Source: Eubacteriales bacterium (GTDB lineage Bacteria; Bacillota; Clostridia; Oscillospirales; CAG-272). From it: a DNA stretch of 64,000 nucleotides. The number at the start of each line of letters is the position of its first letter. Position 1 is the first letter of the stretch. The stretch covers positions 21,638 through 85,637 of the forward strand of contig JAHAZT010000041.1 in assembly GCA_018383975.1 (NCBI GenBank), read 5' to 3'. Under the pieces are notes generated by a model. The model worked only from the letters and a program-made list of their open reading frames with translations, had not been told where the DNA came from and did no database searches. The translations under genes were made by a program, and so were the position numbers. Positions 2,422-59,346 of this stretch are shown here, one piece after another.

Positions 2422-3723
2422 TTATTTTATGTCGGTCACAACTCCCATAAAGAGCGGAAGGTTTGTCTTGCTGTCTATTATATAGTATACAAACGGTCTG
2501 TCGAGCTTTACGTCAACGGGCTTTTTCGGTGCTGCCGATTCGGCAAGTATCTCAACCGCCGTAACAGCCGCCGCCCTCGTTCCCGCCTGCGTCATTTCGA
2601 TATGCGTTTTGTGGAGTACGTCGCCGATATAGAGATTGCCCAAAGGCGAAGAGCCTATGCCGGAAAGGTCTGCTTCTGAAGAAGAAAATGCCTTTTTCAG
2701 TCCCATGGACTCCAGCGCTTTGTAAAGGCTGACGTCATAATCGTATTCAAACTTCGGCAGATATGCCTTTGCACGATAGCCGTAATCGTTTTGCTTTCCG
2801 GAAAGTATCTTCCCGAGCTTCTTGCCGGAAAGAGAATTGACGTAATCGAAAACGTCGCCGTCCGGCAGCATTGCAACAAATTCATATCCGTTCTTATAAT
2901 ATTTTCTGAAACCGATAGCGTTTTTCGTTCTTATGAGCGTTTCCTCGCTCATCATAAACGTTGCGTCGCTTTTGCTCTTGTCGTAAGCGTTGAATGTGCC
3001 CTTCTGACATTGAAAATTCTCATAAGGCTTGCTCCACAGAGCGTCGAAAACGAGTGCGTTTATCAGCAGCATGACGGCGTCCGGGTCGATTGATTCTATG
3101 ATTTTATCAATCATTTTGTCCGTATGCTTGCTCACCCATTTATTGATTTTGTCAACTGTTTTCTGACTGAAAAAGTCCTCCTCATAAGCCTGCGCGTCAT
3201 AATAACTCTTGTTTACCTGCAAAAAGTCCTTGTGAACGGCAATTCTGCCGTCCTTGCCGAACCAGATTGAATTCGCAAGCTCAACCTTCGCTCCGTCGCC
3301 GTTGTAAAGCGAGTGCGCGAGCGTATAAAGATACGCGTTCGCTTCGTCGACGGAAAAGCCGAACAGCTTTTCAAATTCCTCTCTCGTTTCATTCCGCGCG
3401 CCGTTTGCCGTCATTCCGAGAGCGACTATAACGGAAAGTGGCGAGACGAGCGAGTTTTTCTTGTCAATGTCAAGCGTACTTTGCATCAGTCTGACGGCAA
3501 AATCAAGCATACCGTTTTTGAATTTGTCGTCCGCATCCTTACCTTCGACTTCGATTGCGACAAAGTCCTTCAAAAGATCGCCTGCGGCTTTTGCGTTCGT
3601 CGGAGTGACGGTCGGCAGGTCTCCTCTCGTTTCCTTCGGCTCGACCTTTGTCTTTGCGCAGGAGCAAAGCACAAGTCCGAGCATCGAAAGCACGAGTATC
3701 ATTGAAATAATTCGTTTTACCAT
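2422..3723 (-). CDS. serpin (serine protease inhibitor family) with signal peptide / lipobox-like N-terminus
   Basis: N-terminus MVKRIISMILVLSMLGLVLCSC. Serpin signatures NSIWF, LPKFEYDYD, hinge GTRAAAVTAV, DRPF and LFMGVV. GAGGAGG RBS upstream. Confidence 0.9.
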   Translation of the reverse strand: MVKRIISMILVLSMLGLVLCSCAKTKVEPKETRGDLPTVTPTNAKAAGDLLKDFVAIEVEGKDADDKFKNGMLDFAVRLMQSTLDIDKKNSLVSPLSVIVALGMTANGARNETREEFEKLFGFSVDEANAYLYTLAHSLYNGDGAKVELANSIWFGKDGRIAVHKDFLQVNKSYYDAQAYEEDFFSQKTVDKINKWVSKHTDKMIDKIIESIDPDAVMLLINALVFDALWSKPYENFQCQKGTFNAYDKSKSDATFMMSEETLIRTKNAIGFRKYYKNGYEFVAMLPDGDVFDYVNSLSGKKLGKILSGKQNDYGYRAKAYLPKFEYDYDVSLYKALESMGLKKAFSSSEADLSGIGSSPLGNLYIGDVLHKTHIEMTQAGTRAAAVTAVEILAESAAPKKPVDVKLDRPFVYYIIDSKTNLPLFMGVVTDIK

Positions 3724-3753
3724 AAATTTTCCTCCTCTTGTATATGAGCGTTT

Positions 3754-4464
3754 TTATCCGCCCGAAACCGCAAACGAAACGGCTTTCATTCTTTCGGGAT
3801 ACGGCGTATCCGCATTGCCCGTAAGTTCAAATCTGACCGTCAGCGTGACGCCGTCACCGCATGACCATCTGTAAATCGGTGCGCCGAGAGCAACCCTTCC
3901 CTCTCCGCCGAGCAATTTGCAGATCTCCGCATACGACATTCCCTTTTTCAGAACGACGTTGTCCATGACGGTAATTTCCGTAAGCTCACAGGCGGAAGCC
4001 GCGGACGTCGTTACAGGAAAATCCGGACGGGAGGTCGAAACGGCTTCCGTGCCCGACCAAAGCGGAGTCGTTACCACAACAGACGTTCCCTCCCATGTTG
4101 TCGTGGCTGCACTTTGCGGAGGAAAATACGGTATTGTAGTCGTATATTTTATCGACGTCGCCGCCTCCTCCGTCGATTCTTTGTCGAACTCGGTGTGATT
4201 TGCCGATTCTCCGCCGGAATAGCTCGGTGTGAGGATTTCAGTGCCGGCAATTGACGGCGTACCCGATGTATCGAAGTATTTTTCATCGCCTTTCACGCTC
4301 GGGGACAAAGTGCCGATTGCGATCAGCGCAGGCACGATTATTATTGCCATACACGCCGCAAGCGTTGCGAATTTTTTCAGTCTGAGTTTTTTGAGCTTTT
4401 CCTCCGCCGCTTTCTTCTCTGCCTTTTCGCGCACCGTCTGACGGAATTCATTCATATCCTTCAT
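3754..4464 (-). CDS. putative anti-sigma factor: single-pass membrane protein with Thr/Ser-rich linker and C-terminal globular ectodomain
   Basis: ATGA start/stop overlap with the sigma gene. Lys-rich cytoplasmic N-terminus and one TM (LAACMAIIIVPALIAIG). The C-terminus GMSYAEICKLLGGEG..YRW..DG..LTVRF resembles BLIP-like/DUF3862 domains. Confidence 0.55.
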   Translation of the reverse strand: MKDMNEFRQTVREKAEKKAAEEKLKKLRLKKFATLAACMAIIIVPALIAIGTLSPSVKGDEKYFDTSGTPSIAGTEILTPSYSGGESANHTEFDKESTEEAATSIKYTTTIPYFPPQSAATTTWEGTSVVVTTPLWSGTEAVSTSRPDFPVTTSAASACELTEITVMDNVVLKKGMSYAEICKLLGGEGRVALGAPIYRWSCGDGVTLTVRFELTGNADTPYPERMKAVSFAVSGG

Positions 4465-5051
4465 ATCGTTTCTATCCCCCTTTCGATAAGAACTTTTTTC
4501 AGGGCTTCCTTACCTCTGTAAAGCAGATTCGCCGTCTGCCTTTTGTTTTTCTTCATTATAATACATATCTCATCGCCCGAAAAACCGTAAAAATACGTCA
4601 GGCGGAGTATCTGCGCATATTCTTTGTTTATCGTTTCAAGAGCCTCGCGCACGATTTTTGACCTCTCGTCCGAGATGAGCTTTTCTTCAAGGAGTTTTCC
4701 GTCGGTTATGCTTTCCTCGTTTTCGCTTATGTCGGAGTCGGAAATGCGTTTTCTCTTGCGCAGCCCGTCTATCGCTTTGTTTCTTGCAACAGAGAAAAGA
4801 TATGTTTTCAGCGAACAACCGAAGGAGTATCTGTCTTTGTGGACAATCAGTTCCGCAAAGGTGTCGGCGGCGATATCCTCGGCGTCGGCAAAGTTTTTCA
4901 GCGTGCCGTAGACGAAAAATATCAGTCCGTCGTGATATATCTCCATTATTTTATCAAAAGCCGTCTCGTCGCCGCCGAGCCATTTTTCGTAAAGCTCTGC
5001 GCCGATATCCGTTCCGGACGTTCCGGCGCCGATGTATTCATTTTCCGGCAT
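4461..5051 (-). CDS. RNA polymerase sigma-70 family factor, ECF-type
   Basis: Region 2-like DIAADTFAELIVHKDRY and region 4 HTH-like EYAQILRLTYFYGFSGDEICIIM. Start moved to ATG 5051, which has an AAGGAG RBS 8 nt upstream. Confidence 0.85.
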   Translation of the reverse strand: MPENEYIGAGTSGTDIGAELYEKWLGGDETAFDKIMEIYHDGLIFFVYGTLKNFADAEDIAADTFAELIVHKDRYSFGCSLKTYLFSVARNKAIDGLRKRKRISDSDISENEESITDGKLLEEKLISDERSKIVREALETINKEYAQILRLTYFYGFSGDEICIIMKKNKRQTANLLYRGKEALKKVLIERGIETI

Positions 5052-5119
5052 ATTCTTTTCTCCTTTGACCATTAGTCGCACAGGCGGCGCGATTATCTCA
5101 CCACCCGCCGATTTTTTAT

Positions 5120-5148
5120 ATTATATCACGTTTTCCGGCGGATGAAAA
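5120..5148 (-). promoter_or_regulatory. candidate extended -10 promoter for the ECF sigma operon
   Basis: The minus strand reads TGaTATAAT (plus 5120-5128), with a weak -35 TTTTCA 17 nt upstream. Confidence 0.3.
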
Positions 5149-5195
5149 GGGGAAATCGAAGATAATAAAAGCCATTTCGTTCCGGATATTTTCCA

Positions 5196-5228
5196 GTGTG
5201 CGAAGCACGCTTGCAGGCGTCGCCGAGA
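5196..5228 (+). repeat. 33-nt conserved block, copy A (second copy at 31249-31281)
   Basis: gtgtgcgaagcacGcttgcaggcgtcgccgaga versus gtgtgcgaagcacActtgcaggcgtcgccgaga. Begins with the hairpin gtgtgc-gaa-gcacRc. Confidence 0.85.
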
Positions 5229-5239
5229 GGGGTTTGAAT

Positions 5240-5266
5240 GCGCCTCCCCTGTGTAAGGGGAGGCGC
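5240..5266. other. GC-rich stem-loop
   Basis: gcgcctcccc-tgtgtaa-ggggaggcgc, a perfect 10-bp stem. Confidence 0.7.
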
Positions 5267-5272
5267 TAACTT

Positions 5273-5310
5273 CCCGATAACCGAAGTTTATTCTGCCTGC
5301 TTTTCTTTTC
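5273..5310 (+). repeat. 38-nt 'ccgataa..cttttcttttc' module, copy A1
   Basis: cccgataaccgaagtttattctgcctgcttttcttttc. Related copies lie at 5384-5421 (same strand) and 31164-31199 (inverted). Confidence 0.8.
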
Positions 5311-5324
5311 GGGCATAACAAAAC

Positions 5325-5360
5325 AAAAAAACAGAGATGAGAAATCACCTCTGTTTTCTT
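5325..5360. terminator. terminator-like hairpin flanked by A-run and T-run
   Basis: aaaaaaacagag-atgagaaatcac-ctctgttttctt. Lies inside the 400-bp galE/sigma intergenic region. Confidence 0.5.
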
Positions 5361-5383
5361 AATTATAAAATCTGCATATCGTG

Positions 5384-5483
5384 CCCGATAATTGAAGTTT
5401 CTTTTGCCTACTTTTCTTTTCAAAGAAAAGTACGGTGCCTGCTTTTCTTTTCAAAGAAAAGTACGGTCAAAGAAAAGTAGGGT
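5384..5483 (+). repeat. module copy A2 followed by a 31-bp tandem repeat (2.5 units) abutting the galE stop
   Basis: cccgataattgaagtttcttttgcctacttttcttttc. This is followed by gcctRcttttcttttcaaagaaaagtacggt at 5406-5436 and 5437-5467, plus a half unit at 5468-5483. Each unit contains the palindrome cttttcttt/aaagaaaag. Confidence 0.85.
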
Positions 5484-6499
5484 TATTTGTCGTAGCCGTT
5501 GGGATTCTTTGTCTGCCAGCGCCATGTATCCTCGCACATATCGTCAAGGCTCTTTTCCGCCTGCCAACCGAGAATTTCCTTTGCCTTGGTGGCATCCGCG
5601 TAACATTCGGCAATGTCGCCGGGACGTCTGTCCAGCATAACCTTCTTTATCTCTTTTCCACAAGCCTTTTCAAATGCGGAAATCATTTCGAGAACGCTGT
5701 AACCGACGCTTGTTCCGAGATTGAAAACCTCAACTCCCTTGTGCGCGCCGACGTAATCCACCGCCGCAACGTGACCCTTCGCAAGGTCGACAACGTGAAT
5801 ATAGTCGCGCACGCCGGTGCCGTCCTTTGTCGGATAGTCCGTGCCGAAGACCGTCATCTGCGAGAGCTTGCCGACAGCCGTCTGCGCGATTCTCGGCATA
5901 AGGTTGTTCGGGATACCGTTCGGATCCTCGCCGATGAGTCCGCTCTCGTGAGCGCCGACGGGGTTGAAATAGCGGAGGAGAACAACGGAAAGCTCCGGAT
6001 CCGCCTTCGCCGCCGACTGCAGAATAACCTCAATCATATATTTCGTCCAGCCGTAAGGATTTGTGCATCTGCCGACGGGAGCCGTCTCTTTTATCGGCAC
6101 TTCGTCGGGGTCGCCGTATACCGTTGCGGAGGAGGAAAAAATGATGTTGTGAGCGTCATATTTTTTCATCGTTTCAAGAAGAGTGAGCGTCGAATCGAGA
6201 TTGTTTCTGTAATATCTGATAGGCTGTGCCACAGACTCGCCGACCGCTTTGAGTCCTGCGAAATGGATGACCGTATCTATATGCTCCTTTTCAAACACCT
6301 TTGAAAGAGCCTCGCCGTCGCAGACGTCAACCTCATACACGGGGAAAGTCTTTCCCGTTATCTGCTTTATTCTGCGAACCGCCTCCGGCTTGCTGTTTGA
6401 ATAGTTGTCCGCAATGACAATATCATATCCCGCGGAAAGAAGTTCAACCGCCGTATGAGAGCCGATATAGCCCGCTCCGCCTGCAAGTAAAATACTCAT
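5483..6499 (-). CDS. galE: UDP-glucose 4-epimerase
   Basis: N-terminal GGAGYIGSH Rossmann motif and full-length GalE-like sequence (YGWTK, NLGTSVGYSVLE). AGGAGG RBS. Confidence 0.95.
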   Translation of the reverse strand: MSILLAGGAGYIGSHTAVELLSAGYDIVIADNYSNSKPEAVRRIKQITGKTFPVYEVDVCDGEALSKVFEKEHIDTVIHFAGLKAVGESVAQPIRYYRNNLDSTLTLLETMKKYDAHNIIFSSSATVYGDPDEVPIKETAPVGRCTNPYGWTKYMIEVILQSAAKADPELSVVLLRYFNPVGAHESGLIGEDPNGIPNNLMPRIAQTAVGKLSQMTVFGTDYPTKDGTGVRDYIHVVDLAKGHVAAVDYVGAHKGVEVFNLGTSVGYSVLEMISAFEKACGKEIKKVMLDRRPGDIAECYADATKAKEILGWQAEKSLDDMCEDTWRWQTKNPNGYDK

Positions 6500-12678: not shown

Positions 12679-12711
12679 CGCCTGTGTTTTCCTTATTTTA
12701 TACAAAAATAT

Positions 12712-12750
12712 AAAACGCTCGTTTCCCTTGGGGAAAACGAGCGTTTTGTT
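12712..12750. terminator. bidirectional intrinsic terminator
   Basis: aaaacgctcgtttccc-ttg-gggaaaacgagcgtttt between the convergent amidase and dut genes. Confidence 0.8.
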
Positions 12751-20266: not shown

Positions 20267-20965
20267 TTAAACCTCAATGTTTGCGTCGATGAGGAGCTTT
20301 GCGTTTGTATCCGCAGCAAGGCATTTTGTCTTGAATGTGTCAATCGGGTCTGCCTTTCCGAAGCCAACAATGATATATTCGCCGACAGAAACAACCATAA
20401 CCTTATCCGGGAAGCCGCACATCCAGCGTGTACCCATAATTGCGCTGTTGTAGTCCTTTGCAAAGCTTTCTGCAGTTTTAGCGTCCTTGAGATGGAAGAT
20501 CGCAGAGCTGAATGTATTTGTATTCATCATATGGATAAGGTTTGCCGCGTCGTTTTTGACCGTTGCGAGAAGGTCATCGGTAATGTGGGTATATGCCTTT
20601 ATGGATTCTTTGTTCTTTTCTATATCAAAAGCTCCGGGGCCTTCATCGGAATTGTGATCCTCATCGCCGCCGCCGACGGGGAATTTATCGTCGTCGGTGT
20701 AAGAGCCCCATATTTTATTGAAGAGATCGAGCGCATTTGCGTATGCGGGAGTTACGGGAACATCGGGAGTTGTAGTGGTTGTTGTAGCTTCTGTTGTTGT
20801 GGTTGTTGTGTTTGTGTTTGAAGTAGTTGTTGCGTTTGCGTTTGTGGTTGTTGTTACACCGGGTTCTGTCGTTGTTGTGGAATTGTTGTTTCCTCCGCAG
20901 GATACGAGCGAGATTGTGAGTGTCAGCATAACTGCCGCAAGCAAAAGTGCAATAATCTTTTTCAT
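20267..20965 (-). CDS. lipoprotein of unknown function with long poly-Thr linker
   Basis: Lipobox LVSCGG, about 40 residues dominated by Thr/Asn, then a globular C-terminal domain (possibly DUF4358-like; not verified). Confidence 0.7.
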   Translation of the reverse strand: MKKIIALLLAAVMLTLTISLVSCGGNNNSTTTTEPGVTTTTNANATTTSNTNTTTTTTEATTTTTTPDVPVTPAYANALDLFNKIWGSYTDDDKFPVGGGDEDHNSDEGPGAFDIEKNKESIKAYTHITDDLLATVKNDAANLIHMMNTNTFSSAIFHLKDAKTAESFAKDYNSAIMGTRWMCGFPDKVMVVSVGEYIIVGFGKADPIDTFKTKCLAADTNAKLLIDANIEV

Positions 20966-21001
20966 CAGTGTTTTCTTCCTTTTCTGTGTAATGTGATTTT
21001 T

Positions 21002-21559
21002 TCAGTTTTTGCCGTCCTCGGCGGACAGTATCAGACAGTCCCGTTCGCCGTCATAGGTGGCTTTGATTATAAGGGTTTTACTTTTTGACGTCACCGTCAA
21101 TTCAAAATTTTCTTTGCCCGAGATGTCCACGACCCATTCAAATGACGTGTCTCTTCTCGTTTTGATGGACGAGGTTATCCTGCCATCGGCGGTGCAAAGC
21201 GTTCCGCCTTCCGACGCTGTGATAACAGTTTTCCCATCTGCTTCGATTTTAATCGGGACGGTTATCACCTTTTTTTCGCGCGGGGAGTGATCCTCCGTGT
21301 AAACGGAGATACTCGGGGAGGTTATCTCTCCCGTCTGCTCTCTGAGCGTCTGTCCGTCAATGCTTACGTCAAAATTTCCGGAGCCGTAATTTCTGAAAAG
21401 CACAAGTGACAGGACAACAACAAAGCAAGCGGCTATCGCCCCTATATACCTTGTAGCCAAACGGAAATTCGGTTTCTTCTTTTTGACAGGCTCCCGCGCT
21501 TCCGTCAGCAGTTCGTCGTCTATCTCGGTGATAGCTCTTGCAAGTATTTCATTTTTCAT
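21002..21559 (-). CDS. putative anti-sigma factor (single-pass membrane protein)
   Basis: Follows the sigma gene by 16 nt. Short cytoplasmic N-terminus, TM IGAIAACFVVVLSLVLF, and an extracytoplasmic beta-rich domain. Confidence 0.5.
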   Translation of the reverse strand: MKNEILARAITEIDDELLTEAREPVKKKKPNFRLATRYIGAIAACFVVVLSLVLFRNYGSGNFDVSIDGQTLREQTGEITSPSISVYTEDHSPREKKVITVPIKIEADGKTVITASEGGTLCTADGRITSSIKTRRDTSFEWVVDISGKENFELTVTSKSKTLIIKATYDGERDCLILSAEDGKN

Positions 21560-21575
21560 ACCTTCACCAAATTCA

Positions 21576-22136
21576 CTATACCGTGACTCCTTCCCGCTCC
21601 AGATGCGTTTTTAGTTTTGAGCGCGTTCTCAGCAGCATTGTTTTGACGCGGCTTTCGCTTATGCCGAACCTTTCCGCTATTTCCGAAACCGAATCACAAT
21701 AAAAATATCTGCAAACGAAAACCTTGCGATTAAGCTCCTTTTGCTCCCGCAGAAAATCGCTTATGCTTTTGCCGATAAGCTTTGCCTGCTGTTCTGTGTC
21801 CATCGTGTCACCTCCCGGAACGCAATCATCAAGTTCATCGAGAGAGACGGCGAATTCCCCTTCAATCCGCTTTTCCGCGTACCTCATTTTATATTTGTTT
21901 ATCGAAAGGTTACGCGTTATCTTGCCGGCGTATGCGGCAAGGTTCTGCGGTCTGCTCGGCGGAATCGAATTCCACATTTTCAGCCAGACGTCGTTTATAC
22001 ATTCTTCGCTGTCCGGCTCGCTTGAGAGGATGTTCATTGCAATTTTCATACAATATGAACCGTATTTTTTGTCCGTTTCGCTTATAGCGGTTTCGTTACG
22101 GTCGAAATAGAGCCTGATTATCTGCTCATCCTCCAC
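21576..22136 (-). CDS. RNA polymerase sigma-70 family factor, ECF-type
   Basis: Region 2-like EECINDVWLKMW and region 4 HTH NRKVFVCRYFYCDSVSEIAERFGISESRVKTML. GTG start 5 nt after AGGAGGTG. Confidence 0.85.
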   Translation of the reverse strand: MEDEQIIRLYFDRNETAISETDKKYGSYCMKIAMNILSSEPDSEECINDVWLKMWNSIPPSRPQNLAAYAGKITRNLSINKYKMRYAEKRIEGEFAVSLDELDDCVPGGDTMDTEQQAKLIGKSISDFLREQKELNRKVFVCRYFYCDSVSEIAERFGISESRVKTMLLRTRSKLKTHLEREGVTV

Positions 22137-24753: not shown

Positions 24754-25074
24754 TTATTTCTTTTCGTCCGTTTTGTCTGACGACGTATCGTCTTCGGAAT
24801 TATCGGCGCAGCCGTCCTCTTCTTCGTTTATCACGATATCCTCTTCGACCTCTTTGCCCGCGTTTTCATCAATACCGAGCACCTTCGACGCCTTCTTCTT
24901 TATCTTTCTCCAGACGATATAGAACGTCGCGCCCAGCGCGATAACTATGCCGCCGATAACCTGCGCTATAAGCGTAACCTGTGAAGGGTCTATATAAGCC
25001 GCAGCGTTGACCGTCGCAAACAGCGTCATTCCAAAGCAAAGGTATGCCGCAAGAAGTATTTTCATTCGTTTCAT
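24754..25074 (-). CDS. small membrane protein: signal peptide, AYIDPSQVT motif, one TM, acidic tail
   Basis: MKRMKILLAAYLCFGMTLFATVNA|AAYIDPSQVTLIAQVIGGIVIALGATFYIVW followed by a highly acidic C-terminus. Last gene of the operon. Confidence 0.6.
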   Translation of the reverse strand: MKRMKILLAAYLCFGMTLFATVNAAAYIDPSQVTLIAQVIGGIVIALGATFYIVWRKIKKKASKVLGIDENAGKEVEEDIVINEEEDGCADNSEDDTSSDKTDEKK

Positions 25075-25094
25075 ATCAGATTATCTCCCGTAAA

Positions 25095-27155
25095 TCAATT
25101 TTTTCTGTTTTGCTGAATCTCCGCAAGACGTCGGAGGATGTATTTCGCGCCCTCTGCGCCGTTCGTCCCGTACGAATAGAGATGCTCGTGAAGAAGAGCG
25201 GTTATCTTTTCTCTGTATTTTTCCCCGCTCGCCATAAGCTCCTCTGCTGTCGCCTTGGTTTTGTCGAGCTCGCTCTTTTCAAGCGCGACGCCGACCTTGT
25301 CACGAAGGTATATTTCGGACGGCGTCAGCCCGATTTTCTCCCATTCGGGATTTTCCATTTTCATTTTTGTATTGACAAACAGCACGGGCTTTTTTGTCGA
25401 AAAGCAGAATTCATAAGCAATTGCAGACCAGTCCGTTATCAGCAGGTCGGAGGAATACGTCGATTTGTTTGTCGAAAAGTCCAGCTCAAAGGTGAGCTTT
25501 TCATCCGGAACTCCGGCATATTTTTCCGTCAGCAGCCTGATTTTCTCCGGATAACGCTTGACGTACTCCGGATGCGGACGGACGGTTATATGGTTTTCGT
25601 CACACATAAGCTGCTCTATCAGCGTATCGACGCAGCTGTCCAGCAGGTTGTCCTCCTGCCAAGAGGGACCTATCAGTATTTCCCGCTTTGCGTGCGGGGT
25701 TTTGTCCATATCCTCATAAGCCTTTTCCAGCTTTTCTTCAAGAGGATAACCGAATTTCACAAGCGTCTTCTCCGGAAGAGAATAAACCTCCTCCGTCTTC
25801 CGCACTTCCCTTGCGACGTGTTCTCCCGTGCAGAAGATCGTATCGAAATGGTCAAGGGCGGCTTTGCGGAAACCCATATGAACGCTCATCATATCGTGCG
25901 GAACGTAAATATATTCAATATCCTTTTTGACGAGCGAACGCTTTATATAGAAATTGTCGAGGTCGGGCGTTGTCATCGCGACTATGTCCGCCTCCATTCT
26001 CATCATAAAGGATATCAGCTTTTTCGGGCCTATATAATACGGCTTTATCGTCGGGTCGGTTTCGGCAAGACGGAACACGGCGTCGTCGGGGTCGCTCGTG
26101 ACGTAATGTATCGTCATGTTTTTGGCTCTCTTTTTCAGCTCCGTTATAAGCGCCTCGAAATATTTATAAAACCCGCTTCTTTCCGAATAGATGACAAGGT
26201 GCTTGTTTACGATTTTGAAAAATCTCTTGTAATCCGCCTTTTCTCTTTTTGCGTTTTCCTTTGATTTTTCGTCTCTTTTACCGTCGTCGAGACGTTCGAT
26301 ATCGGCAAGAGCCTTACGGCTCTCTTCAAGCCGTTTGTAATCAACGTATTTTTTCGGATTTATCACGGCGTTGAGAACATATTGCTGGATAATTGCGAAA
26401 ACGTTGCTCGCAATCCAGTAAAGCGCGACTCCCGTATATACGAAAAATCCGAGGAAGAGCGAAACGCCGACCGAAAGCACCGTCGTTCCGTACTTATTGA
26501 ATTTCCCCTGCTCTGCCTGCAAAACGTTCGTTGCGTTCATTACCCAACAGAGGAGAAGAGACGATACCCCCGCGATAACGGGAACGAGCGTATAAAATCC
26601 CCACGCCTTATACGGCTCTATGCCGAGCGAAAGCCCGATAAACGAAAGGTCGAGCGGCTTTATCTGCGAAACAACGCCGGCAAAGGCGGCGTCGGTCGAC
26701 GCTCCCGACTGTATCGTTTTGATTATTTCAAGCTGATTTTCCGCATTGATTCCGAGGCTCTCCGCAAGCGCGGCAACTGTTTCCGAACTCATATGCAGAA
26801 CGTTTGTCAGCGGCTGCTTGACTATATACAGCACCGCCGTCAGCAGCAGAAGCTGGAGCAGAAGCGGAACTACCGTCACAAACGGACTGTAACCCTTTTT
26901 CTTCTGCATTGCCGTTTCTTCCTCGGCAATTCTTTCCCTGTCGCCGTAATATTTTGCCTTTATAAAGTTTATATCCGGCTGGATCGTGACCATTTTTATA
27001 GAGTTTTTATGCACCCACACCGAAACGGGAATGAGAATTATCTTTGTGCACAGGGTGAAGAGAATTATCGCAAGGCCGTAATTTCCGCAAAGCTCCCAGC
27101 ACCATTTCATAACGTATCCGAGCGGGTAGCATATATAATGCATGACCGTATTCAT
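25095..27155 (-). CDS. fusion protein: N-terminal YidC/Oxa1-family insertase domain + C-terminal CDP-glycerol glycerophosphotransferase (TagB/TagF family) domain
   Basis: YidC hallmarks GLAIILFTLCTKIILIPV, KMVTIQPD and GVALYWIASNVFAIIQQ. C-terminal half has GPSWQED and LLITDWSAIAYEFCFSTKKPVLF, typical of Glyphos_transf. GAAGGAG RBS. Confidence 0.8.
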   Translation of the reverse strand: MNTVMHYICYPLGYVMKWCWELCGNYGLAIILFTLCTKIILIPVSVWVHKNSIKMVTIQPDINFIKAKYYGDRERIAEEETAMQKKKGYSPFVTVVPLLLQLLLLTAVLYIVKQPLTNVLHMSSETVAALAESLGINAENQLEIIKTIQSGASTDAAFAGVVSQIKPLDLSFIGLSLGIEPYKAWGFYTLVPVIAGVSSLLLCWVMNATNVLQAEQGKFNKYGTTVLSVGVSLFLGFFVYTGVALYWIASNVFAIIQQYVLNAVINPKKYVDYKRLEESRKALADIERLDDGKRDEKSKENAKREKADYKRFFKIVNKHLVIYSERSGFYKYFEALITELKKRAKNMTIHYVTSDPDDAVFRLAETDPTIKPYYIGPKKLISFMMRMEADIVAMTTPDLDNFYIKRSLVKKDIEYIYVPHDMMSVHMGFRKAALDHFDTIFCTGEHVAREVRKTEEVYSLPEKTLVKFGYPLEEKLEKAYEDMDKTPHAKREILIGPSWQEDNLLDSCVDTLIEQLMCDENHITVRPHPEYVKRYPEKIRLLTEKYAGVPDEKLTFELDFSTNKSTYSSDLLITDWSAIAYEFCFSTKKPVLFVNTKMKMENPEWEKIGLTPSEIYLRDKVGVALEKSELDKTKATAEELMASGEKYREKITALLHEHLYSYGTNGAEGAKYILRRLAEIQQNRKN

Positions 27156-27174
27156 TTATGTCTCCTTCGGGTCA

Positions 27175-28956
27175 TCAGTAGAGCGACCCTATGTTTACAT
27201 CCGAGACGATTTCCCAGTTTGAAAAATCTTTGCCCATACCCGTAACGACAAAGTCGACTATTCTTGTATCGCCCTTGTCGTAAAGCTCGAATTTATGGTG
27301 CCTCGTGACGTTTTCTCCTTTGGCTATCTCAAAATAAGTCCTGCCGTAATCGACGTCGGTTTCAATCCCCGCGGATTTTACCAGCGTAGGAATGAGATTT
27401 GCCTGACATACCTGCGCGCTTGAATAAGCGAGCGGCTCGTCACAAGCGCCGGCAGGCTTTACAAAGAGCGCGGTAAGTCTCGGCTGGGTGGGTATTTCGC
27501 CGTCGTCTCTTGCGCTCGGGTGGTCGCCCGTGATGACTATCGTTGAATTTTCATAAACGCCGAGGCGACGCATTTCATCAATATACGAATATATCATTCC
27601 GAAGCAGCCCCTCATCGCGCCCTCAAACGACCCGTCCTCAACGCGATTGCCGTTTTCGTCCATATTGTACGGCTGATGACAGCCGTTCAGATGAATAAGC
27701 GTATATGATTTTTCGCTGTCGTCAACTGTAAGTCCTCCGGAGAGAAGCTCGTACGCGCGCGGGTCGTCAACCTTGTATGCAGGCGCCTCGCCGCCGTAGC
27801 TTATGACGCTGTTAAACGACGAAGTCGATACGGAGAGCGTGCTTTTAAGCACGGTCGGAAGACTTCTGTAAACGGAAAGCTGCGCCATATTTCCGACGAG
27901 CGCCGCTCTGTCCGTCACTTCGTATTTTGAAACGCCCGAAACGTTATATACTCTGCCGTTCATCGCTCTTGCGTCTCTGTAACCGTAATAATCTCCGGTA
28001 TAGAGCTTTATGCGATATCCGTTTTTCTGCAAATCCGAGAGGAAGGGCGATGTGCCGTATGCGGTTTCAAACCACTTCTCCGGACTGCACCCGTATTCGT
28101 AATCGACGCCGGTTATCATCGTGGCAAGCCCCGGATAAGTTCTTGAATAAAGGGAAATATTGTCCTTGAAATATGTAAATCCCGTAAGCTTATCAAAGAA
28201 TTTCGGGTCTTTGCCCTTCATTTCCTGATAAAAACTTATATCAAAACGGTCAACGACGAACACAACTATGTTTTTCCCTTTGGAAACCTCGTTTATGCCC
28301 GCCTCCGTCAGATACTGTTTTATATTTTCTTCCGGCTTTTCCGGCTCCTTCGGTTTTTCGGTCGTGACAGGCGGAGCGGAGGTCTCCGTTGTCTGCGGAT
28401 TTTCCGTCGTCTGCGGAGCCTCCGTTTTTCCCGTCTGAGTATCCGTTATCTTCGGTATGCTTGATACGCACCCGACAGCCTGCATTCCGACAATCATAAT
28501 GAGCAGAACGACCGACACCGTCTTTATCATATCAAATTTTTTCATTTTAATCGCTCCTATTACACACAGCACCGCCGCGATAATCCACAGCGCGGTATCC
28601 AATATCAGAAACCAGGGCTTGACCTTCGTTCCGACGTCGTCTCCGGCAAGCGACCCCATGCCGACGTTCAGAAAAATTGCCTGAATGTAGCCCATAAGCG
28701 CAATCCAGAAAAATATTCCGAAAAGCACCCTGTAAGCCGTGCCGTTTACAAGAAGAAGAACAAGTGTTATCACAAGCGAAACGGCAAGCGCAATCAGTGC
28801 GAGCTGCCAACCGAAATCGGAAAACGAAAAGAGCATTTCCTTTCTGTTTCCCGCAAACACTTCAACCGCTCCGAAAAAGAGCCATGTAAAACCGACCGCC
28901 GCTCCGCAAAGGGACGCGGGTAGTATTTTCTGTTTTATATCTTTTATGTCAATCAC
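27175..28956 (-). CDS. LTA synthase family / sulfatase-like phosphoglycerol transferase (alkaline-phosphatase superfamily)
   Basis: Five N-terminal TMs, a Thr/Pro/Glu linker, and an extracellular domain with VVFVVDRFD, SRTYPG (putative Thr nucleophile) and VITGDHP. GTG start. Confidence 0.8.
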   Translation of the reverse strand: MIDIKDIKQKILPASLCGAAVGFTWLFFGAVEVFAGNRKEMLFSFSDFGWQLALIALAVSLVITLVLLLVNGTAYRVLFGIFFWIALMGYIQAIFLNVGMGSLAGDDVGTKVKPWFLILDTALWIIAAVLCVIGAIKMKKFDMIKTVSVVLLIMIVGMQAVGCVSSIPKITDTQTGKTEAPQTTENPQTTETSAPPVTTEKPKEPEKPEENIKQYLTEAGINEVSKGKNIVVFVVDRFDISFYQEMKGKDPKFFDKLTGFTYFKDNISLYSRTYPGLATMITGVDYEYGCSPEKWFETAYGTSPFLSDLQKNGYRIKLYTGDYYGYRDARAMNGRVYNVSGVSKYEVTDRAALVGNMAQLSVYRSLPTVLKSTLSVSTSSFNSVISYGGEAPAYKVDDPRAYELLSGGLTVDDSEKSYTLIHLNGCHQPYNMDENGNRVEDGSFEGAMRGCFGMIYSYIDEMRRLGVYENSTIVITGDHPSARDDGEIPTQPRLTALFVKPAGACDEPLAYSSAQVCQANLIPTLVKSAGIETDVDYGRTYFEIAKGENVTRHHKFELYDKGDTRIVDFVVTGMGKDFSNWEIVSDVNIGSLY

Positions 28957-29231
28957 CTCTTTCTACGAGTTACAGTTTATCATTTATATATATCATTGTC
29001 AACCCGAAACGGACTTTTTCGGCAATTTGCACTTTTTTGAACACCTTTTTTCTACGTCCGACGAAGAGACGCCCGTGCGATAAAACATTCTTTTCGTTTA
29101 GTCGTTCCGGAACGCGGTTTTTCTCATATGAAGGCGCATTTTTTATCAAAATCAGCCGACGCCGGATGTAACCCGAAGCGCCCCTTGCGCATACTATTTA
29201 AGTGCGGGGATTTTTCGGGGAGGTGCGGCTT

Positions 29232-30146
29232 ATGGATATGGATTTCCGCTCTGCGGCTCCGTCGCGGAAAATCCGCGATTACTGCTTTTCGATAGCGGAG
29301 AAGTTTCCCTCCGTTTCGCTTTTCACAATAGGCTGTTCGCTTTCCGGTCAACCCATAGATTGCATGAGCATAGGAGCGGGAGAGATCTGTCATATCGTCG
29401 TCGGCGCACATCACGCATCGGAGCATATAACCGCCCTCATCTGCGTGAAATTCGTTTGCGACCTTGCAAAAGCCGTGCGCGACGGAATGTTCCTTGTCGG
29501 CTTTGACGCAAAGCAGATATTTTCAAGACGAAAAATTTTCGTCGTCCCCGTGATAAATCCGGACGGAACGGACATTCAGCAAGGAGTTTTCCCATGCGGG
29601 CATATTCTCTTTCCGCGGCTTGTATCAATGAACCCGTCGGGACGGGATTTTACGCACTGGCAGGCAAATGCGCGCGGCGTCGACTTGAATCACAATTATG
29701 ACGCAGGCTTTGCCGATTGTCGGCTGCTTGAAAGAAACGCCGGAATATATTCGGGAGGACCTTCGCGCTTCGGCGGACAGTATCCCGAAAGCGAACCGGA
29801 AACGCATGCGCTCTGCAATCTGACGCGTTTTCTTGCGCCGCAGCTCAAAACAGCTGTCGCGCTGCACACGCAGGGGGAGGAGATTTATTATGACTACCTC
29901 GGCGACTGTCCGCGCGGATCGCTTATGCTCGCCGAATGTTTTTCGCGCGTTTCGGGATATACCGTTTCAAAGCCGAGCGGTATCGCGTCATACGGCGGAT
30001 ATAAGGACTGGGTGATATCAAAGCTCGGAATTCCCGCCTTCACAATAGAATGCGGCAAGGGAGAAAACCCCTTGCCGCCGAGCGATTTTGATAATATTTA
30101 CAAAAAAGTCCTGCCCATTCTGCTCACCGCCGCCGCTTTCGGATAA
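29232..30146 (+). CDS. M14 family zinc carboxypeptidase (gamma-D-glutamyl-meso-diaminopimelate peptidase-like)
   Basis: GAHHASEHIT (HxxE Zn site), VDLNHNY and ALHTQGEEIYY. ATG 29232 lies 6 nt after GGGGAGGTG. Confidence 0.8.
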   Translation: MDMDFRSAAPSRKIRDYCFSIAEKFPSVSLFTIGCSLSGQPIDCMSIGAGEICHIVVGAHHASEHITALICVKFVCDLAKAVRDGMFLVGFDAKQIFSRRKIFVVPVINPDGTDIQQGVFPCGHILFPRLVSMNPSGRDFTHWQANARGVDLNHNYDAGFADCRLLERNAGIYSGGPSRFGGQYPESEPETHALCNLTRFLAPQLKTAVALHTQGEEIYYDYLGDCPRGSLMLAECFSRVSGYTVSKPSGIASYGGYKDWVISKLGIPAFTIECGKGENPLPPSDFDNIYKKVLPILLTAAAFG

Positions 30147-59269: not shown

Positions 59270-59346
59270 GCACCCGTAGCTCAGCAGGATAGAGCAACCG
59301 CCTCCTAAGCGGTAGGTCAGCGGTTCGAATCCGCTCGGGTGCGCCA
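59270..59346 (+). tRNA. tRNA-Arg (anticodon CCU), CCA encoded
   Basis: Manual cloverleaf: acceptor gcacccg/cgggtgc, D arm gctc-agcaggat-gagc, anticodon stem accgc/gcggt with loop ctCCTaa, and T arm agcgg-ttcgaat-ccgct, followed by gcca. Confidence 0.9.

Follow-up and report, generated by a model that had tools for sequence, protein, structure and literature searches.

An operon joining an ECF sigma factor, a single-pass membrane protein and a predicted surface serpin in a Eubacteriales bacterium, and its arrangement across Clostridia

Is the serpin encoded at this locus of a gut Eubacteriales bacterium (Clostridia) controlled by the ECF sigma factor whose gene lies two genes upstream, and to what would such a system respond? 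An earlier note had proposed that a sigma/anti-sigma pair drives the serpin. The window analysed is a 64-kb stretch of assembly GCA_018383975.1 (JAHAZT010000041.1, positions 21,638-85,637, forward strand), and all coordinates below are positions in it. The following features were located around the serpin gene.

2375-2413, both strands: bidirectional intrinsic terminator, operon end (terminator scan)
2422-3723, minus strand: lipoprotein serpin of the inhibitory type (PF00079)
3724-3753, minus strand: 30-nt junction with the serpin ribosome-binding site AGGAGG alone (sequence)
3754-4464, minus strand: single-pass membrane protein, anti-sigma-like (ATGA overlap with the sigma gene)
4461-5051, minus strand: ECF sigma factor (HMM domains)
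5072-5100, minus strand: P2, ECF-type TGAGATAA-N14-CGACTAA (exact pattern)
5120-5148, minus strand: P1, sigmaA-like TTTTCA-17-TATAAT with a TGn extended -10 (10/12 matches plus TG, promoter scan)
5324-5361, minus strand: intrinsic terminator of the upstream galE-like gene, upstream boundary of the unit (17-pair stem plus T-run)
5483-6499, minus strand: galE-like gene, upstream neighbour (ORF list)

The sigma factor, membrane protein and serpin genes were shown computationally to form one operon ending at the 2375-2413 terminator, because the first two overlap by ATGA, the 30-nt junction holds a ribosome-binding site only, promoter and terminator scans gave no promoter-like or terminator-like site within 3724-3753, and terminators stand on both flanks. 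The terminator at the operon end has an 18-bp stem with 10 G-C pairs and T-runs on both strands. In relatives the junction also keeps the ribosome-binding site alone, and in L081 the genes abut. The layout given in the earlier note (three co-directional minus-strand genes, the ATGA overlap, a 30-nt gap free of hairpins and a strong bidirectional terminator) was recovered in every part, and an independent promoter in the gap, which would have told against its proposal, did not appear on the scan.

Neighbours of the operon are the galE-like gene (an order also present in the relative L085) and genes for an ECF-transporter S component, a wecB-like protein, PFK and one protein without assignment. 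No kinase or response regulator was found among these neighbours, and a Bifidobacterium-type serpin operon, with a two-component system and a LacI-type regulator adjacent, was rejected on that ground. Passages on the serpin of the gut commensal Bifidobacterium breve in PMC8012564 (citing Turroni 2010 and Alvarez-Martin 2012) and PMC8201313 describe protease-induced, autoregulated transcription and a proposed protection from environmental proteases. There, a histidine kinase/response regulator adjoins the serpin operon, whereas here, in another phylum, the partner is an ECF sigma/anti-sigma pair.

The ECF (group 4) sigma-70 factors have sigma2 and sigma4 domains only, in about 170-220 aa; their cognate regulator, usually a membrane anti-sigma, is co-transcribed immediately downstream, and an autoregulatory two-block promoter precedes the operon. 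The sigma factor at this locus has the same domain content and size: 196 aa with the ATG at 5051 as start (preceded by an AAAGGAG ribosome-binding site conserved in relatives; the mechanical ORF reaches farther, to a GTG at 5081), with Sigma70_r2 at 3.4e-12 (aa 37-102), Sigma70_r4_2 at 7.7e-07 (aa 133-184) and 79.8 bits against TIGR02937 (sigma70-ECF, cut-off 42.9). The ATGA-overlapping single-pass membrane protein occupies the place of the regulator, as in all sigma-positive loci, and a candidate two-block promoter, recognised from sequence, lies upstream. All named ECF equivalog models in NCBIfam (SigW, SigM, SigV, SigX and others) fell far under cut-off, the best resemblances being to SigW (79, cut-off 209) and SigM (77, cut-off 148). 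The protein was assigned to a 'family A', with identities of 89-91% to L001/L085, 58% to L081 and 37-42% to an 'MDNG...' group whose genes precede those of distant serpins. The window also encodes a second ECF sigma factor (21576-22136), which makes it less secure that the ECF-type motif described below belongs to the first, although the -35 ahead of that second gene is another one, TGTAACC.

Synteny in relatives, which the earlier note had named as a check, was found at close, intermediate and distant range. The order sigma factor, TM protein, serpin is kept in L001, L085 and L086 (close) and in L081 (serpin 52% identical). Of 68 distant serpin loci from Clostridia (40-48% identity), 26 (~38%) are directly preceded, in the same orientation, by genes for an ECF sigma factor and a single-pass membrane protein; the other 62% have no adjacent sigma factor. 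When 80 serpin loci from species-representative genomes were scanned, 29 of the 32 sigma-HMM matches lay on the strand of the serpin gene and no more than 3 kb upstream of it, in a region making up 12% of strand-space (binomial p = 1.4e-23). The adjacency is far beyond chance, and the module is widespread, with records from Lachnospiraceae, Oscillospiraceae, Acutalibacteraceae, Eubacteriales and Caldanaerobacter. The sigma factors at serpin loci belong to two ECF families (A and B) with a mutual identity of only 20-28%.

Two candidate promoters precede the operon. The P1 blocks CCTTTTCAT and GTG.TATAATA.AAAAAAT are invariant in the window, L001, L085 and L086, with diverged sequence around them. 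The search for an ECF-type promoter that had been proposed earlier gave P2, whose pattern TGAGAWAA-N14-CGACTAA was expected 0.00 times (100 shuffles). The motif lies upstream of the sigma gene in the same three relatives and in L081, with unalignable flanks. Its -35 block, TGAGAWAA in the window clade, is without the canonical ECF 'GGAAC'. P2 overlaps a leader hairpin (dG -19.6, z -2.5), and a leader from it would be very short (~20 nt). Since the motif precedes the sigma factor's own gene, it was assigned to this sigma factor as a putative target, which would make the operon autoregulated. Operon expression is probably not purely sigma-dependent, because the conserved sigmaA-like P1 also precedes it, and given P1 the serpin may be largely constitutive.

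Taken to its end, this would make the serpin a passenger without regulatory link, in an operon constitutive from P1 and with a sigma factor that controls other genes. P1 is well conserved and near consensus and has an extended -10; this reading is nevertheless highly improbable. Serpins of the MDNG group have a single recognisable promoter, of ECF type, which lies ahead of the sigma gene, and the motif of that group (family A), AAGGAAy-N~17-(T/C)GTATAAT, occurs 12 times in 848 kb, every time upstream of the sigma gene; the family-B motif is TGnAACC-N15/16-GACGAG. The ortholog of the serpin tengpin in L040 (about 45% identity with the window serpin by tblastn) lies downstream of two sigma/TM-protein pairs, and an ECF-type promoter, GGAAC-N16-CGTC, stands directly upstream of this ortholog. 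A passenger is also at odds with the gene order kept from family to family and beside both sigma types, and with the gene fusions described below. Synteny, the ECF-type motif and the uninterrupted stretch from sigma factor to serpin support the earlier proposal that the pair drives the serpin; all of its checks that were open to computation favoured it.

The motif was matched only twice in the 64-kb window, at P2 and at a second site, even with two mismatches allowed. The second site precedes a group of envelope genes.

29098-29126, minus strand: second ECF-type motif, TGAGAAAA-N14-CGACTAA, candidate regulon promoter (pattern match)
27175-28956, minus strand: LtaS-like polytopic membrane protein, 593 aa, first gene after the second motif (Sulfatase PF00884 4.3e-06, aa 228-486)
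25095-27155, minus strand: 686-aa fusion of a YidC-like insertase with a TagB/F-like CDP-glycerol glycerophosphotransferase (PF02096 8.2e-30 and PF04464 8.4e-12)
24754-25074, minus strand: small membrane protein, 106 aa (ORF list; no Pfam match)

Both blocks of the second site are invariant, and its spacer is diverged but of fixed length, before orthologs in L091/L092 (83%) and L089 (69%). The YidC-TagB/F-like gene is putatively in the same operon as the LtaS-like gene, and judging by spacing the small membrane protein is possibly its last gene. This envelope operon sits 24 kb away from the sigma operon.

Envelope genes behind the second motif would also be expected of a generic envelope-stress sigma factor (sigmaM/sigmaW-like) that answers wall, teichoic-acid and membrane damage, not proteases, with the serpin as one output. 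The resemblances to SigW and SigM, under cut-offs as they are, point the same way, as do the dual sigmaA and ECF promoters, which are typical of Bacillus subtilis ECF operons. An LtaS paralogue in B. subtilis is sigmaM-dependent. Like B. subtilis sigmaW-RsiW and sigmaM, the system would be an autoregulated ECF operon with an extra sigmaA promoter and envelope genes in its regulon, and the MDNG group of family A has a GGAAC/TGAAAC...CGTA-type promoter; unlike them, it scores under the equivalog cut-offs, its anti-sigma is not of the zinc-binding class I and the -35 of the window clade differs. We know of no serpin in the sigmaW or sigmaM regulons. A generic stress response leaves unexplained the link of the serpin to two unrelated ECF families at 38% of loci, its repeated conversion into an anti-sigma ectodomain and the fused two-gene modules in which the serpin is the sole local output, and it was judged somewhat doubtful.

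The middle protein has 236 aa, with a single TM helix (about aa 32-53). A conserved ~30-aa cytoplasmic helix with the TM is followed by a ~110-aa Thr/Ser/Pro-rich tether and a C-terminal ectodomain (aa 160-236). In the AF2 model, with helix 4-36 and TM 39-50, pLDDT is <50 for residues 26-159 and 78-91 for 160-236; the tether is predicted to be disordered and the ectodomain to be a small alpha/beta domain. No Pfam, NCBIfam or PDB-sequence match was obtained (Pfam and NCBIfam even at E<=1), and a Foldseek search of the PDB gave no significant match (best E = 0.12). Class I anti-sigma proteins (ASD / zf-HC2, RsiW/RseA-like) have an N-terminal four-helix domain of ~80-90 aa, often with an HxxxCxxC zinc motif. 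The middle protein was rejected as a member, having one short cytoplasmic helix, no Cys/His motif and no family match; no curated anti-sigma domain was detected in it. The label 'anti-sigma' is given here by position and architecture. Among 25 homologs the N-terminal 45 aa are near-invariant and the remainder varies, and a motif M-K/R-x-x-x-E-F/Y-K/R...basic+TM is common to family A, including the post-sigma protein of L081; both points lend indirect support to a putative binding of the sigma factor by the N-terminal helix. Across loci, the post-sigma proteins always have a basic N-terminus of ~25-30 aa and a TM helix, with differing ectodomains.

Varying ectodomains behind a short N-terminus and TM are also a feature of another clostridial pair, SigI-RsgI of cellulolytic clostridia, for which work cited in PMC7826278 is there said to describe swappable extracellular sensors on a short N-terminal anti-sigma segment. 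That pair differs in having a sigmaI-like factor with a sigmaI-C domain, and sensors that are carbohydrate-binding or glycoside-hydrolase modules and not protease inhibitors. In sigmaV-RsiV (B. subtilis, C. difficile, E. faecalis), a single-pass anti-sigma ectodomain directly recognises the hostile host enzyme lysozyme, regulated intramembrane proteolysis (RIP) frees the sigma factor, and the regulon gives resistance to the same enzyme (PMC4183432, PMC5014341, PMC9044953). The likeness is in logic only: an ECF sigma factor is co-transcribed with a single-pass membrane partner. In sequence the middle protein is unrelated to RsiV (family scans negative), and its cytoplasmic part of ~30 aa is without canonical anti-sigma domain; the enzyme class would be serine proteases and the recognising module a suicide inhibitor, the serpin, fused in some lineages and separate in the window. 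As an RsiV-type receptor the middle protein was rejected, with no Pfam hit above noise and the negative structure and PDB-sequence searches above.

The serpin has 433 aa and a full PF00079 domain (3.2e-84, model positions 4-369/370). Among solved structures tengpin (2PEE/2VH4, E~1e-88) comes nearest to it, in keeping with an inhibitory-serpin fold. Bacterial lipoproteins carry a signal peptide that closes in a lipobox, [LVI][ASTVI][GAS]C. By this pattern the serpin is a predicted lipoprotein, with the lipobox L-C-S-C (MVKRIISMILVLSMLGLVLCS-C22) and Cys22 retained by 90% or more of 20 homologs, as are 100 of the 150 nearest serpin representatives; the earlier description of a full-length serpin with a signal/lipobox N-terminus stands. 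In inhibitory serpins a hinge with Gly at P15, Thr/Ser at P14 and Ala/Gly/Ser at P12-P9 allows loop insertion. The hinge here, GTRAAAVT (QAGTRAAAVTAVEILAES), is of this type, as it is in all fused and unfused relatives. By alpha1-antitrypsin numbering, counted by hand, the P1 residue would be about Glu/Ser in 'LAES', an uncertain placement, and the target specificity of the serpin is one that we infer.

Miropin of Tannerella forsythia, a lipid-anchored cell-surface lipoprotein, is likewise a serpin of a host-associated anaerobe and was among the PDB sequence matches (5NCS-5NCW). It belongs to another phylum, its similarity is much lower (E~1e-38 to 1e-46), and no sigma/anti-sigma linkage is reported for it. 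Tengpin (Thermoanaerobacter/Caldanaerobacter tengcongensis) is known only from a truncated soluble protein that was assayed against elastase and whose N-terminal cap traps the native state; the paper is silent on regulation and genomic context (PMC1905895). A tengpin-type [N/D]-L-[M/L] cap, here 'D-L-L' with an invariant L50, is present at the N-terminus of the window serpin.

Siropins and SerpinBL were assayed against host proteases (PMC8201313). No protease gene was found in four Pfam-annotated serpin neighbourhoods, which fits an exogenous target of the serpin. Both points weigh against an internal negative feedback in which the serpin would brake an endogenous site-1 serine protease that cuts the anti-sigma, and so end the response: the characterised relatives target exogenous or host-type proteases. 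Co-expression of the serpin with the sigma/anti-sigma pair, a predicted anchoring of serpin and anti-sigma on the outer side of the membrane, and the serine proteases that act at site 1 in several RIP systems would suit such a brake, which was considered improbable.

In other loci the anti-sigma-like N-terminus and TM are fused to a complete serpin domain (L019, L039, L070, L042, P0100, P0106, P0073, P0093). Such fusions make up about 17 (~11%) of the 150 nearest cluster representatives at 50% identity. They are dispersed over at least six serpin lineages, and that of L039 is the sister (75%) of the adjacent lipoprotein serpin. In L083 and L087, whose gene context was examined, the fusion gene directly overlaps the upstream sigma gene, giving self-contained two-gene modules. 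The fusions are the strongest evidence obtained and the most novel aspect of the locus family, and were absent from the earlier note.

They raise the question whether the serpin itself is the sensor. Protease capture or cleavage of the reactive-centre loop would drive the S-to-R transition and remodel the surface (helices E/F, s1A/s2A) on which the [D/N]-L-[M/L] cap is docked; the juxtamembrane tether, released or exposed, would license site-1/site-2 cleavage of the anti-sigma and free the sigma factor. This would act in cis in fused forms and, in the window, in trans via the small ectodomain of the middle protein, and each spent suicide inhibitor would prompt its own replacement. The anti-sigma ectodomain has been replaced repeatedly and independently, in two sigma families, by a complete serpin with canonical hinge; the two-gene modules stand alone; the cap motif, with its invariant L50, lies about 1-16 residues past the TM in most fusions; and the tengpin residues N40-L41-M42 trap the native state by docking on helices E/F and s1A/s2A, elements that shift upon loop insertion (PMC1905895). 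Against this, the window serpin is a separate lipoprotein whose contact with the middle protein is putative, and a 'FSFSLTWGCYGISSY' domain also swaps between anti-sigma (ectodomain in L003, L035, L038, L077) and separate lipoproteins (separate ORF in L065), so that fusion may merely reflect common membrane tethering. A serpin sensor was considered unlikely.

The reading slightly favoured here is an autoregulated envelope-defence circuit with the surface serpin among its outputs and protease attack as the presumed trigger. P1 would give basal expression and P2, recognised by the operon's own sigma factor, positive autoregulation. At rest, the ~30-residue cytoplasmic helix of the membrane protein would hold the sigma factor. 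When surface serpin is short or consumed, proteolytic damage to the long, exposed and disordered tether or to the ectodomain outside the cell would serve as the site-1 cut, intramembrane proteolysis would follow, and the freed sigma factor would raise transcription of its own operon, hence more surface serpin, and of the LtaS-like/YidC-TagB/F-like operon 24 kb off. By trapping serine proteases on the cell surface the serpin would close a negative feedback loop. RsiV as the receptor of a host enzyme (PMC4183432, PMC5014341) and the protease-inducible serpin of B. breve (PMC8012564) are precedents for such a circuit. Regulated proteolysis of the membrane protein, with a protease as signal, is the part that we infer.

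No description of a serpin-ECF link was found in a limited literature library, in agreement with the earlier view that this regulatory logic is undescribed. That a surface serpin shares an operon with an alternative sigma factor and the membrane partner of that factor, recurrently across Clostridia and often as one anti-sigma::serpin protein, suggests an undescribed way of sensing or countering proteases outside the cell. A bolder reading, given clearly less than even odds, is that serpins may serve in Clostridia as signal-transducing protease sensors. The metastable serpin would be the extracytoplasmic domain of an anti-sigma, fused to it or, in this window, paired with it; irreversible loop insertion upon protease capture would undock the juxtamembrane [D/N]-L-M cap, set off intramembrane proteolysis of the anti-sigma and free the ECF sigma factor. 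If so, consumption of the suicide inhibitor would set off a transcriptional pulse that replaces the serpin and remodels the envelope; it would be the first bacterial case of a serpin conformational change serving transmembrane signalling, and would offer gut commensals a direct route to read host or luminal protease activity.

Three co-directional genes and their flanking signals were mapped computationally on the minus strand of the window as follows.

Features of the serpin operon
2375-2413, both strands: bidirectional terminator closing the operon (18-bp stem)
2422-3723, minus: serpin gene, full-length (PF00079, 3.2e-84)
3724-3753, minus: 30-nt junction between the middle gene and the serpin gene, with an AGGAGG RBS as its sole content
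3754-4464, minus: middle gene (236 aa, one TM helix), its ATG overlapping the sigma stop as ATGA
4461-5051, minus: ECF sigma gene (Sigma70_r2 and Sigma70_r4_2)
5100-5072, minus: P2, ECF-type element TGAGA(T/A)AATC...GCGACTAATGG, downstream of P1 (footprinting)
5148-5120, minus: P1, sigmaA-like TTTTCA-17-TATAAT with TGn (promoter scan and footprinting)
5361-5324, minus: terminator dividing the operon from the upstream galE-like gene (terminator scan)

An earlier note had described a sigma/anti-sigma/serpin unit here, with an ATGA overlap, a 30-nt junction free of hairpins, a full-length serpin with a lipobox-like N-terminus and a strong bidirectional terminator at its end. All of these were recovered, the three ORFs at exactly the coordinates noted. 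Scanning of the minus strand between sigma and the serpin start yielded no promoter-like or terminator-like site. The sigma passed the NCBIfam ECF superfamily model (79.8 bits, cut-off 42.9) and reached none of the NCBIfam named equivalogs; by domain criteria it can be taken as a bona fide ECF sigma. Its start is most plausibly the ATG at 5051, after an AAAGGAG RBS kept in relatives. The serpin has a lipobox with a conserved Cys22 and an inhibitory-type hinge (GTRAAAVT), is separate from the middle protein (the unfused form), and had no database record of its exact sequence. No RNA family was found close to the operon in an Rfam search, the sole gathering-score match in the 64-kb window being a tRNA gene (59270-59343, plus).

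Conservation was assessed in 80 serpin loci fetched from species-representative genomes, in which every ORF was searched with a sigma-sequence HMM. Relatives of the window serpin formed a graded series. In the close relatives (loci L001, L085 and L086) the whole neighbourhood was common: wecB-like, ECF-transporter S component, galE, sigma, TM protein, serpin, unknown protein and PFK. An intermediate locus, L081 (identity to the window 58% for sigma and 52% for serpin), had, in this order, sigma, a 373-aa TM protein whose gene overlaps it, a tandem pair of serpins and a small lipoprotein. Among loci with at least 1.5 kb of upstream sequence, 26 of 68 (38%) had an ECF sigma on the serpin strand and no more than 3 kb upstream, and the other 62% had no adjacent sigma. 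Only three sigma-HMM matches lay outside that zone, so that 29 of 32 fell within 12% of the strand-space searched (p = 1.4e-23). Sigma-positive records bore the labels Agathobacter, Lachnospiraceae, Oscillospiraceae, Acutalibacteraceae, Eubacteriales, Faecalimonas, Flemingiibacterium and Caldanaerobacter. The synteny that the earlier note proposed to check was kept in the three close relatives, in L081 and in those 26 loci, and defines a widespread, self-contained module. Two sigma families were involved: family A, in which the window sigma is 37-42% identical to a large 'MDNGASSYRRFLDGDE...' group, and family B ('MQDEKIVELYWNRDE...'), which has 20-28% identity to family A. The L054 sigma gene was split into two ORFs (3370-3660 and 3805-3963; region 3370-3963), either a frameshift/pseudogene or a MAG assembly error. 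Some operons held tandem serpins (two in L081, 3743-6308; a fused and a lipoprotein serpin in L039 and L042), whose reactive-centre loops have diverged, a pattern that fits diversified protease specificities.

The gene that follows sigma overlapped it in all sigma-positive loci. Its product spans the membrane once, with a short basic N-terminus ahead of a TM helix at about residue 26-30. The family-A N-terminal consensus was M-[KR]-x-x-x-E-[FYC]-[KR]-x-E-[IV]-F-R-R-S-E...R-R-K; the N-terminus of the window protein is MKDMNEFRQTVREKAEKKAAEEKLKKLRLKK, and that of L081 (MKDMNEFKKSVYEKAEK...) forms a bridge between the window version and the wider family. Across 25 homologs from the window's clade, residues 1-45 were almost invariant and the remainder varied as a mosaic: in alignment A3 (P0126-P0130 against P0131-P0140) the window-type C-terminal domain occurred in some homologs with a different linker, and vice versa, which suggests recombination inside the ectodomain. 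AF2 predicted a helix (4-36) that merges with the TM helix (39-50), a disordered stretch of about 110 residues rich in Thr/Ser/Pro, and a small confident alpha/beta domain (160-236, pLDDT 78-91) for which neither structure nor sequence comparison gave a significant match. Neither Pfam nor NCBIfam matched the window protein, even at E ≤ 1, and it failed the class I anti-sigma test. A 58-aa profile of the anti-sigma N-terminus, too short for significance, returned one match from a 5.8-billion-protein database. By architecture and position the protein is classed as a putative anti-sigma, not of class I, that would bind sigma.

The commonest family-A ectodomain ended in the conserved unit 'Y.I.....G....Y.L.GN.L......L...Q...L..LL' (C-termini in L005, L024, L027, L030, L046, L054, L065 and L072). 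Another domain, 'FSFSLTWGCYGISSYDSxTGxLVKT...KGQKFLDVCKAI..EWKxLPEYE', served as the anti-sigma ectodomain in L003 (5200-5895), L035, L038 and L077 and was a lipoprotein of its own in an operon of this kind in L065 (5346-5894); here, too, a module has been exchanged between anti-sigma and operon lipoproteins, as with the serpin.

In four loci (L019, L039 and L070 of family A, L042 of family B) an anti-sigma-type N-terminus, a TM helix and a complete serpin (PF00079 positions 2-369 of 370) formed one ORF, in which the lipoprotein signal peptide was replaced and the usual ectodomain was missing. The same architecture was present in database proteins P0100 and P0106 (both with an A-type N-terminus), P0073 and P0093. 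The fusion genes for P0106 (locus L083) and P0073 (L087) overlapped the upstream ECF sigma gene by 4 bp; because only opposite-strand genes follow the fusion gene in L083, sigma and fusion there make a self-contained module. An exhaustive HMMER search over 1.84 billion cluster representatives gave 51,850 serpins. Among the best 150 of these, 100 were lipoproteins and about 17 (~11%) had an anti-sigma-like cytoplasmic tail and TM helix (about 12 A-type, 4-5 B-type). This tally includes P0181, which was not relied on: it resembles a read-through keeping the whole lipoprotein signal peptide and is possibly an assembly or frameshift artefact. Fused serpins occurred in at least 6 dispersed lineages with 42-54% mutual identity (NJ tree, deep branches poorly resolved), and in L039 the fusion was sister (75%) to the neighbouring lipoprotein serpin. 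The canonical hinge was kept in all fused serpin domains. A prosaic reading is that anti-sigma and serpin both merely need a membrane tether; it gains some weight from the 'FSFSLTWGCYGISSY...' domain, which likewise occurs in two states, as ectodomain of the anti-sigma or as a lipoprotein with its own gene in the operon. The repeated and independent origin of such fusions in both sigma families strongly supports an action of the serpin at the extracytoplasmic side of the anti-sigma.

Other appendages were also recorded. L070 (5806-7965) and P0162 carried, in addition to the fusion, a C-terminal BspA-type leucine-rich repeat region (LRR_5, 1.2e-58), which points to adhesion at the surface or to recruitment of targets. 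The close serpin representatives P0201, P0264 and P0173 had N-terminal modules of dockerin-like or SLH-like type. Predicted surface anchors of the window-type serpin family are thus at least four: lipid, anti-sigma TM, dockerin and SLH.

Footprinting within the window's clade gave the two conserved elements upstream of sigma, P1 and P2. The upstream region of L081 is otherwise unalignable, yet has TGAGAAAA-N14-CGACTAA at identical spacing; a candidate ECF-type promoter, of the sort sought upstream of the window sigma, is kept in relatives. TGAGAWAA-N14-CGACTAA had exactly two sites in the window (5100-5072 and 29126-29098; 0.00 expected, 100 shuffles), which were also the sole matches when 2 mismatches were allowed. 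The -35 block of this clade is atypical among ECF promoters, and P1 may dominate expression of the serpin operon. At 5052-5112 (minus) the ECF -35 block is overlapped by a leader hairpin, GGCGGGUGGUGAGAUAAUCGCGCCGCC (dG -19.6 kcal/mol, z -2.5), which would belong to the 5' UTR of any transcript from P1. A GGAAC that precedes P1 (5197-5193) was rejected as a promoter element, since it is not conserved in L001 or L085.

Elsewhere, the family-A 'MDNG' group had a conserved ECF-type promoter upstream of sigma, TAAGGAAy-N~17-(T/C)GTATAATA, followed by a conserved 5' hairpin. A strict regex matched 12 times in 848 kb, each directly upstream of a sigma gene (12/12) and never separately before a serpin. 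The only relaxed match in the window (12698-12728) corresponds to one arm of a terminator hairpin and was attributed to chance. A 5'-leader stem-loop, GGGTCA-GACG-TGACCC, conserved in sequence and structure, starts a few bases past the -10 of the family-A promoter in L003 (~4606-4640), L035, L046, L054, L065, L072 and L039; Rfam gave no counterpart of it in the window, and it could be a 5'-end stabiliser or a regulatory site. The family-B promoter was TG(A/C/T)AACC-N15/16-GACGAG.

The second motif site lies about 140 nt upstream of an envelope operon, and the window also holds a second ECF module.

Features near the second motif site and of the second ECF module
24754-28956, minus: envelope operon (LtaS-like membrane protein; YidC-like insertase::TagB/F-like glycerophosphotransferase; small TM protein)
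29202-30146, plus: M14 zinc carboxypeptidase gene, divergent, in the same intergenic region as the second motif
21576-22136, minus: family-B sigma, with a TGTAACC -35 upstream
21002-21559, minus: B-type anti-sigma-like TM protein, N-terminus MKNEILARAITEIDDELLTEAREP
20267-20965, minus: Thr-rich lipoprotein, the partner in place of serpin

Orthologous loci of human-gut metagenomes, at 83% and 69% identity, had the two blocks of the second site unchanged, and the spacer was fully diverged at fixed length; one locus had a deletion there. A sigmaA-type promoter nearer the envelope gene was also conserved. The second ECF module (20267-22136, minus) pairs its sigma with a non-serpin lipoprotein; in other genomes, family-B sigmas are upstream of serpins or fused to them. 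This second sigma was rejected as owner of the TGAGAWAA motif, which was assigned to the serpin-operon sigma because the second has a different -35 (TGTAACC) upstream. The 29098-29126 site, in front of the envelope operon, is a candidate promoter of that sigma's regulon.

The L040 serpin is an ortholog of tengpin (E = 2.5e-230 to PDB 2VH4). GGAAC-N16-CGTC stands directly upstream of it, after a terminator, and a one-mismatch copy precedes the adjacent sigma gene; the finding is no more than suggestive, as at least 2 matches arose in 7 of 200 shuffles. The ortholog (4783-6067) is split into a 50-aa ORF with a lipoprotein signal (…NTTGCSFF…) and the serpin body, probably by a homopolymer frameshift in the assembly. 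This implies that the '56-aa N-terminal region' of tengpin would be a lipoprotein signal plus tether. In tengpin the native state is trapped by the cap N40-L41-M42, which binds to helices E/F and strands s1A/s2A; its deletion shortens the half-life from ~600-800 h to 5-8 h, and loop insertion moves these same docking elements (PMC1905895). The cap leucine (L50) was invariant in the window serpin family, and the cap lay ~1-16 residues from the TM helix in most fusions.

The evidence best supports a model in which an autoregulated ECF circuit would serve envelope defence, with a surface serpin among its outputs. Basal sigmaA transcription would supply sigma, anti-sigma and serpin; released sigma would boost the operon from P2 and induce envelope-biogenesis genes, and the lipid-anchored serpin would neutralise serine proteases at the surface. 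We infer extracytoplasmic proteolysis as the trigger because serpins were specifically and repeatedly recruited, because the window anti-sigma has a long, exposed, disordered tether, because no protease gene was found in the annotated neighbourhoods, and because there are precedents: RsiV, an anti-sigma acting as host-enzyme receptor (PMC4183432, PMC5014341), and the B. breve serpin, whose transcription is protease-induced (PMC8012564). In a sharper and more novel version the serpin itself would be the sensor: protease capture would lead to loop insertion, undocking of the juxtamembrane segment and licensing of RIP. Such undocking is conceivable because the cap-docking elements shift, the cap leucine is invariant and the cap is near the TM helix.

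In its working the circuit would be like sigmaV-RsiV and other RIP-controlled ECF systems. Comparison with RsiV, RsgI and the two-component regulators of serpins revealed no homology. Full-text literature searches returned no paper tying serpins to ECF or anti-sigma factors. A gut-serpin review is silent on sigma factors. The ECF reclassification paper is silent on serpins in its main text, and its group tables may still list one. The significance of the window derives from the family-wide pattern, its own copy being unfused.

To our knowledge, the regulation of serpins in Firmicutes is essentially unknown, and the module with its recognisable promoters gives a directly testable model of commensal protease sensing. 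In inflammatory bowel disease the gut lumen shows elevated serine-protease activity, and serpins of gut bacteria (SerpinBL, siropins, miropin) are under exploration as protective factors (PMC8201313). The module would also be a compact protease-responsive genetic switch of possible use in synthetic biology. Tengpin, the textbook model of serpin metastability, gains a regulatory context, and a physiological meaning is suggested for its N-terminal 'cap'; the serpin would add a new class of anti-sigma sensor domain.
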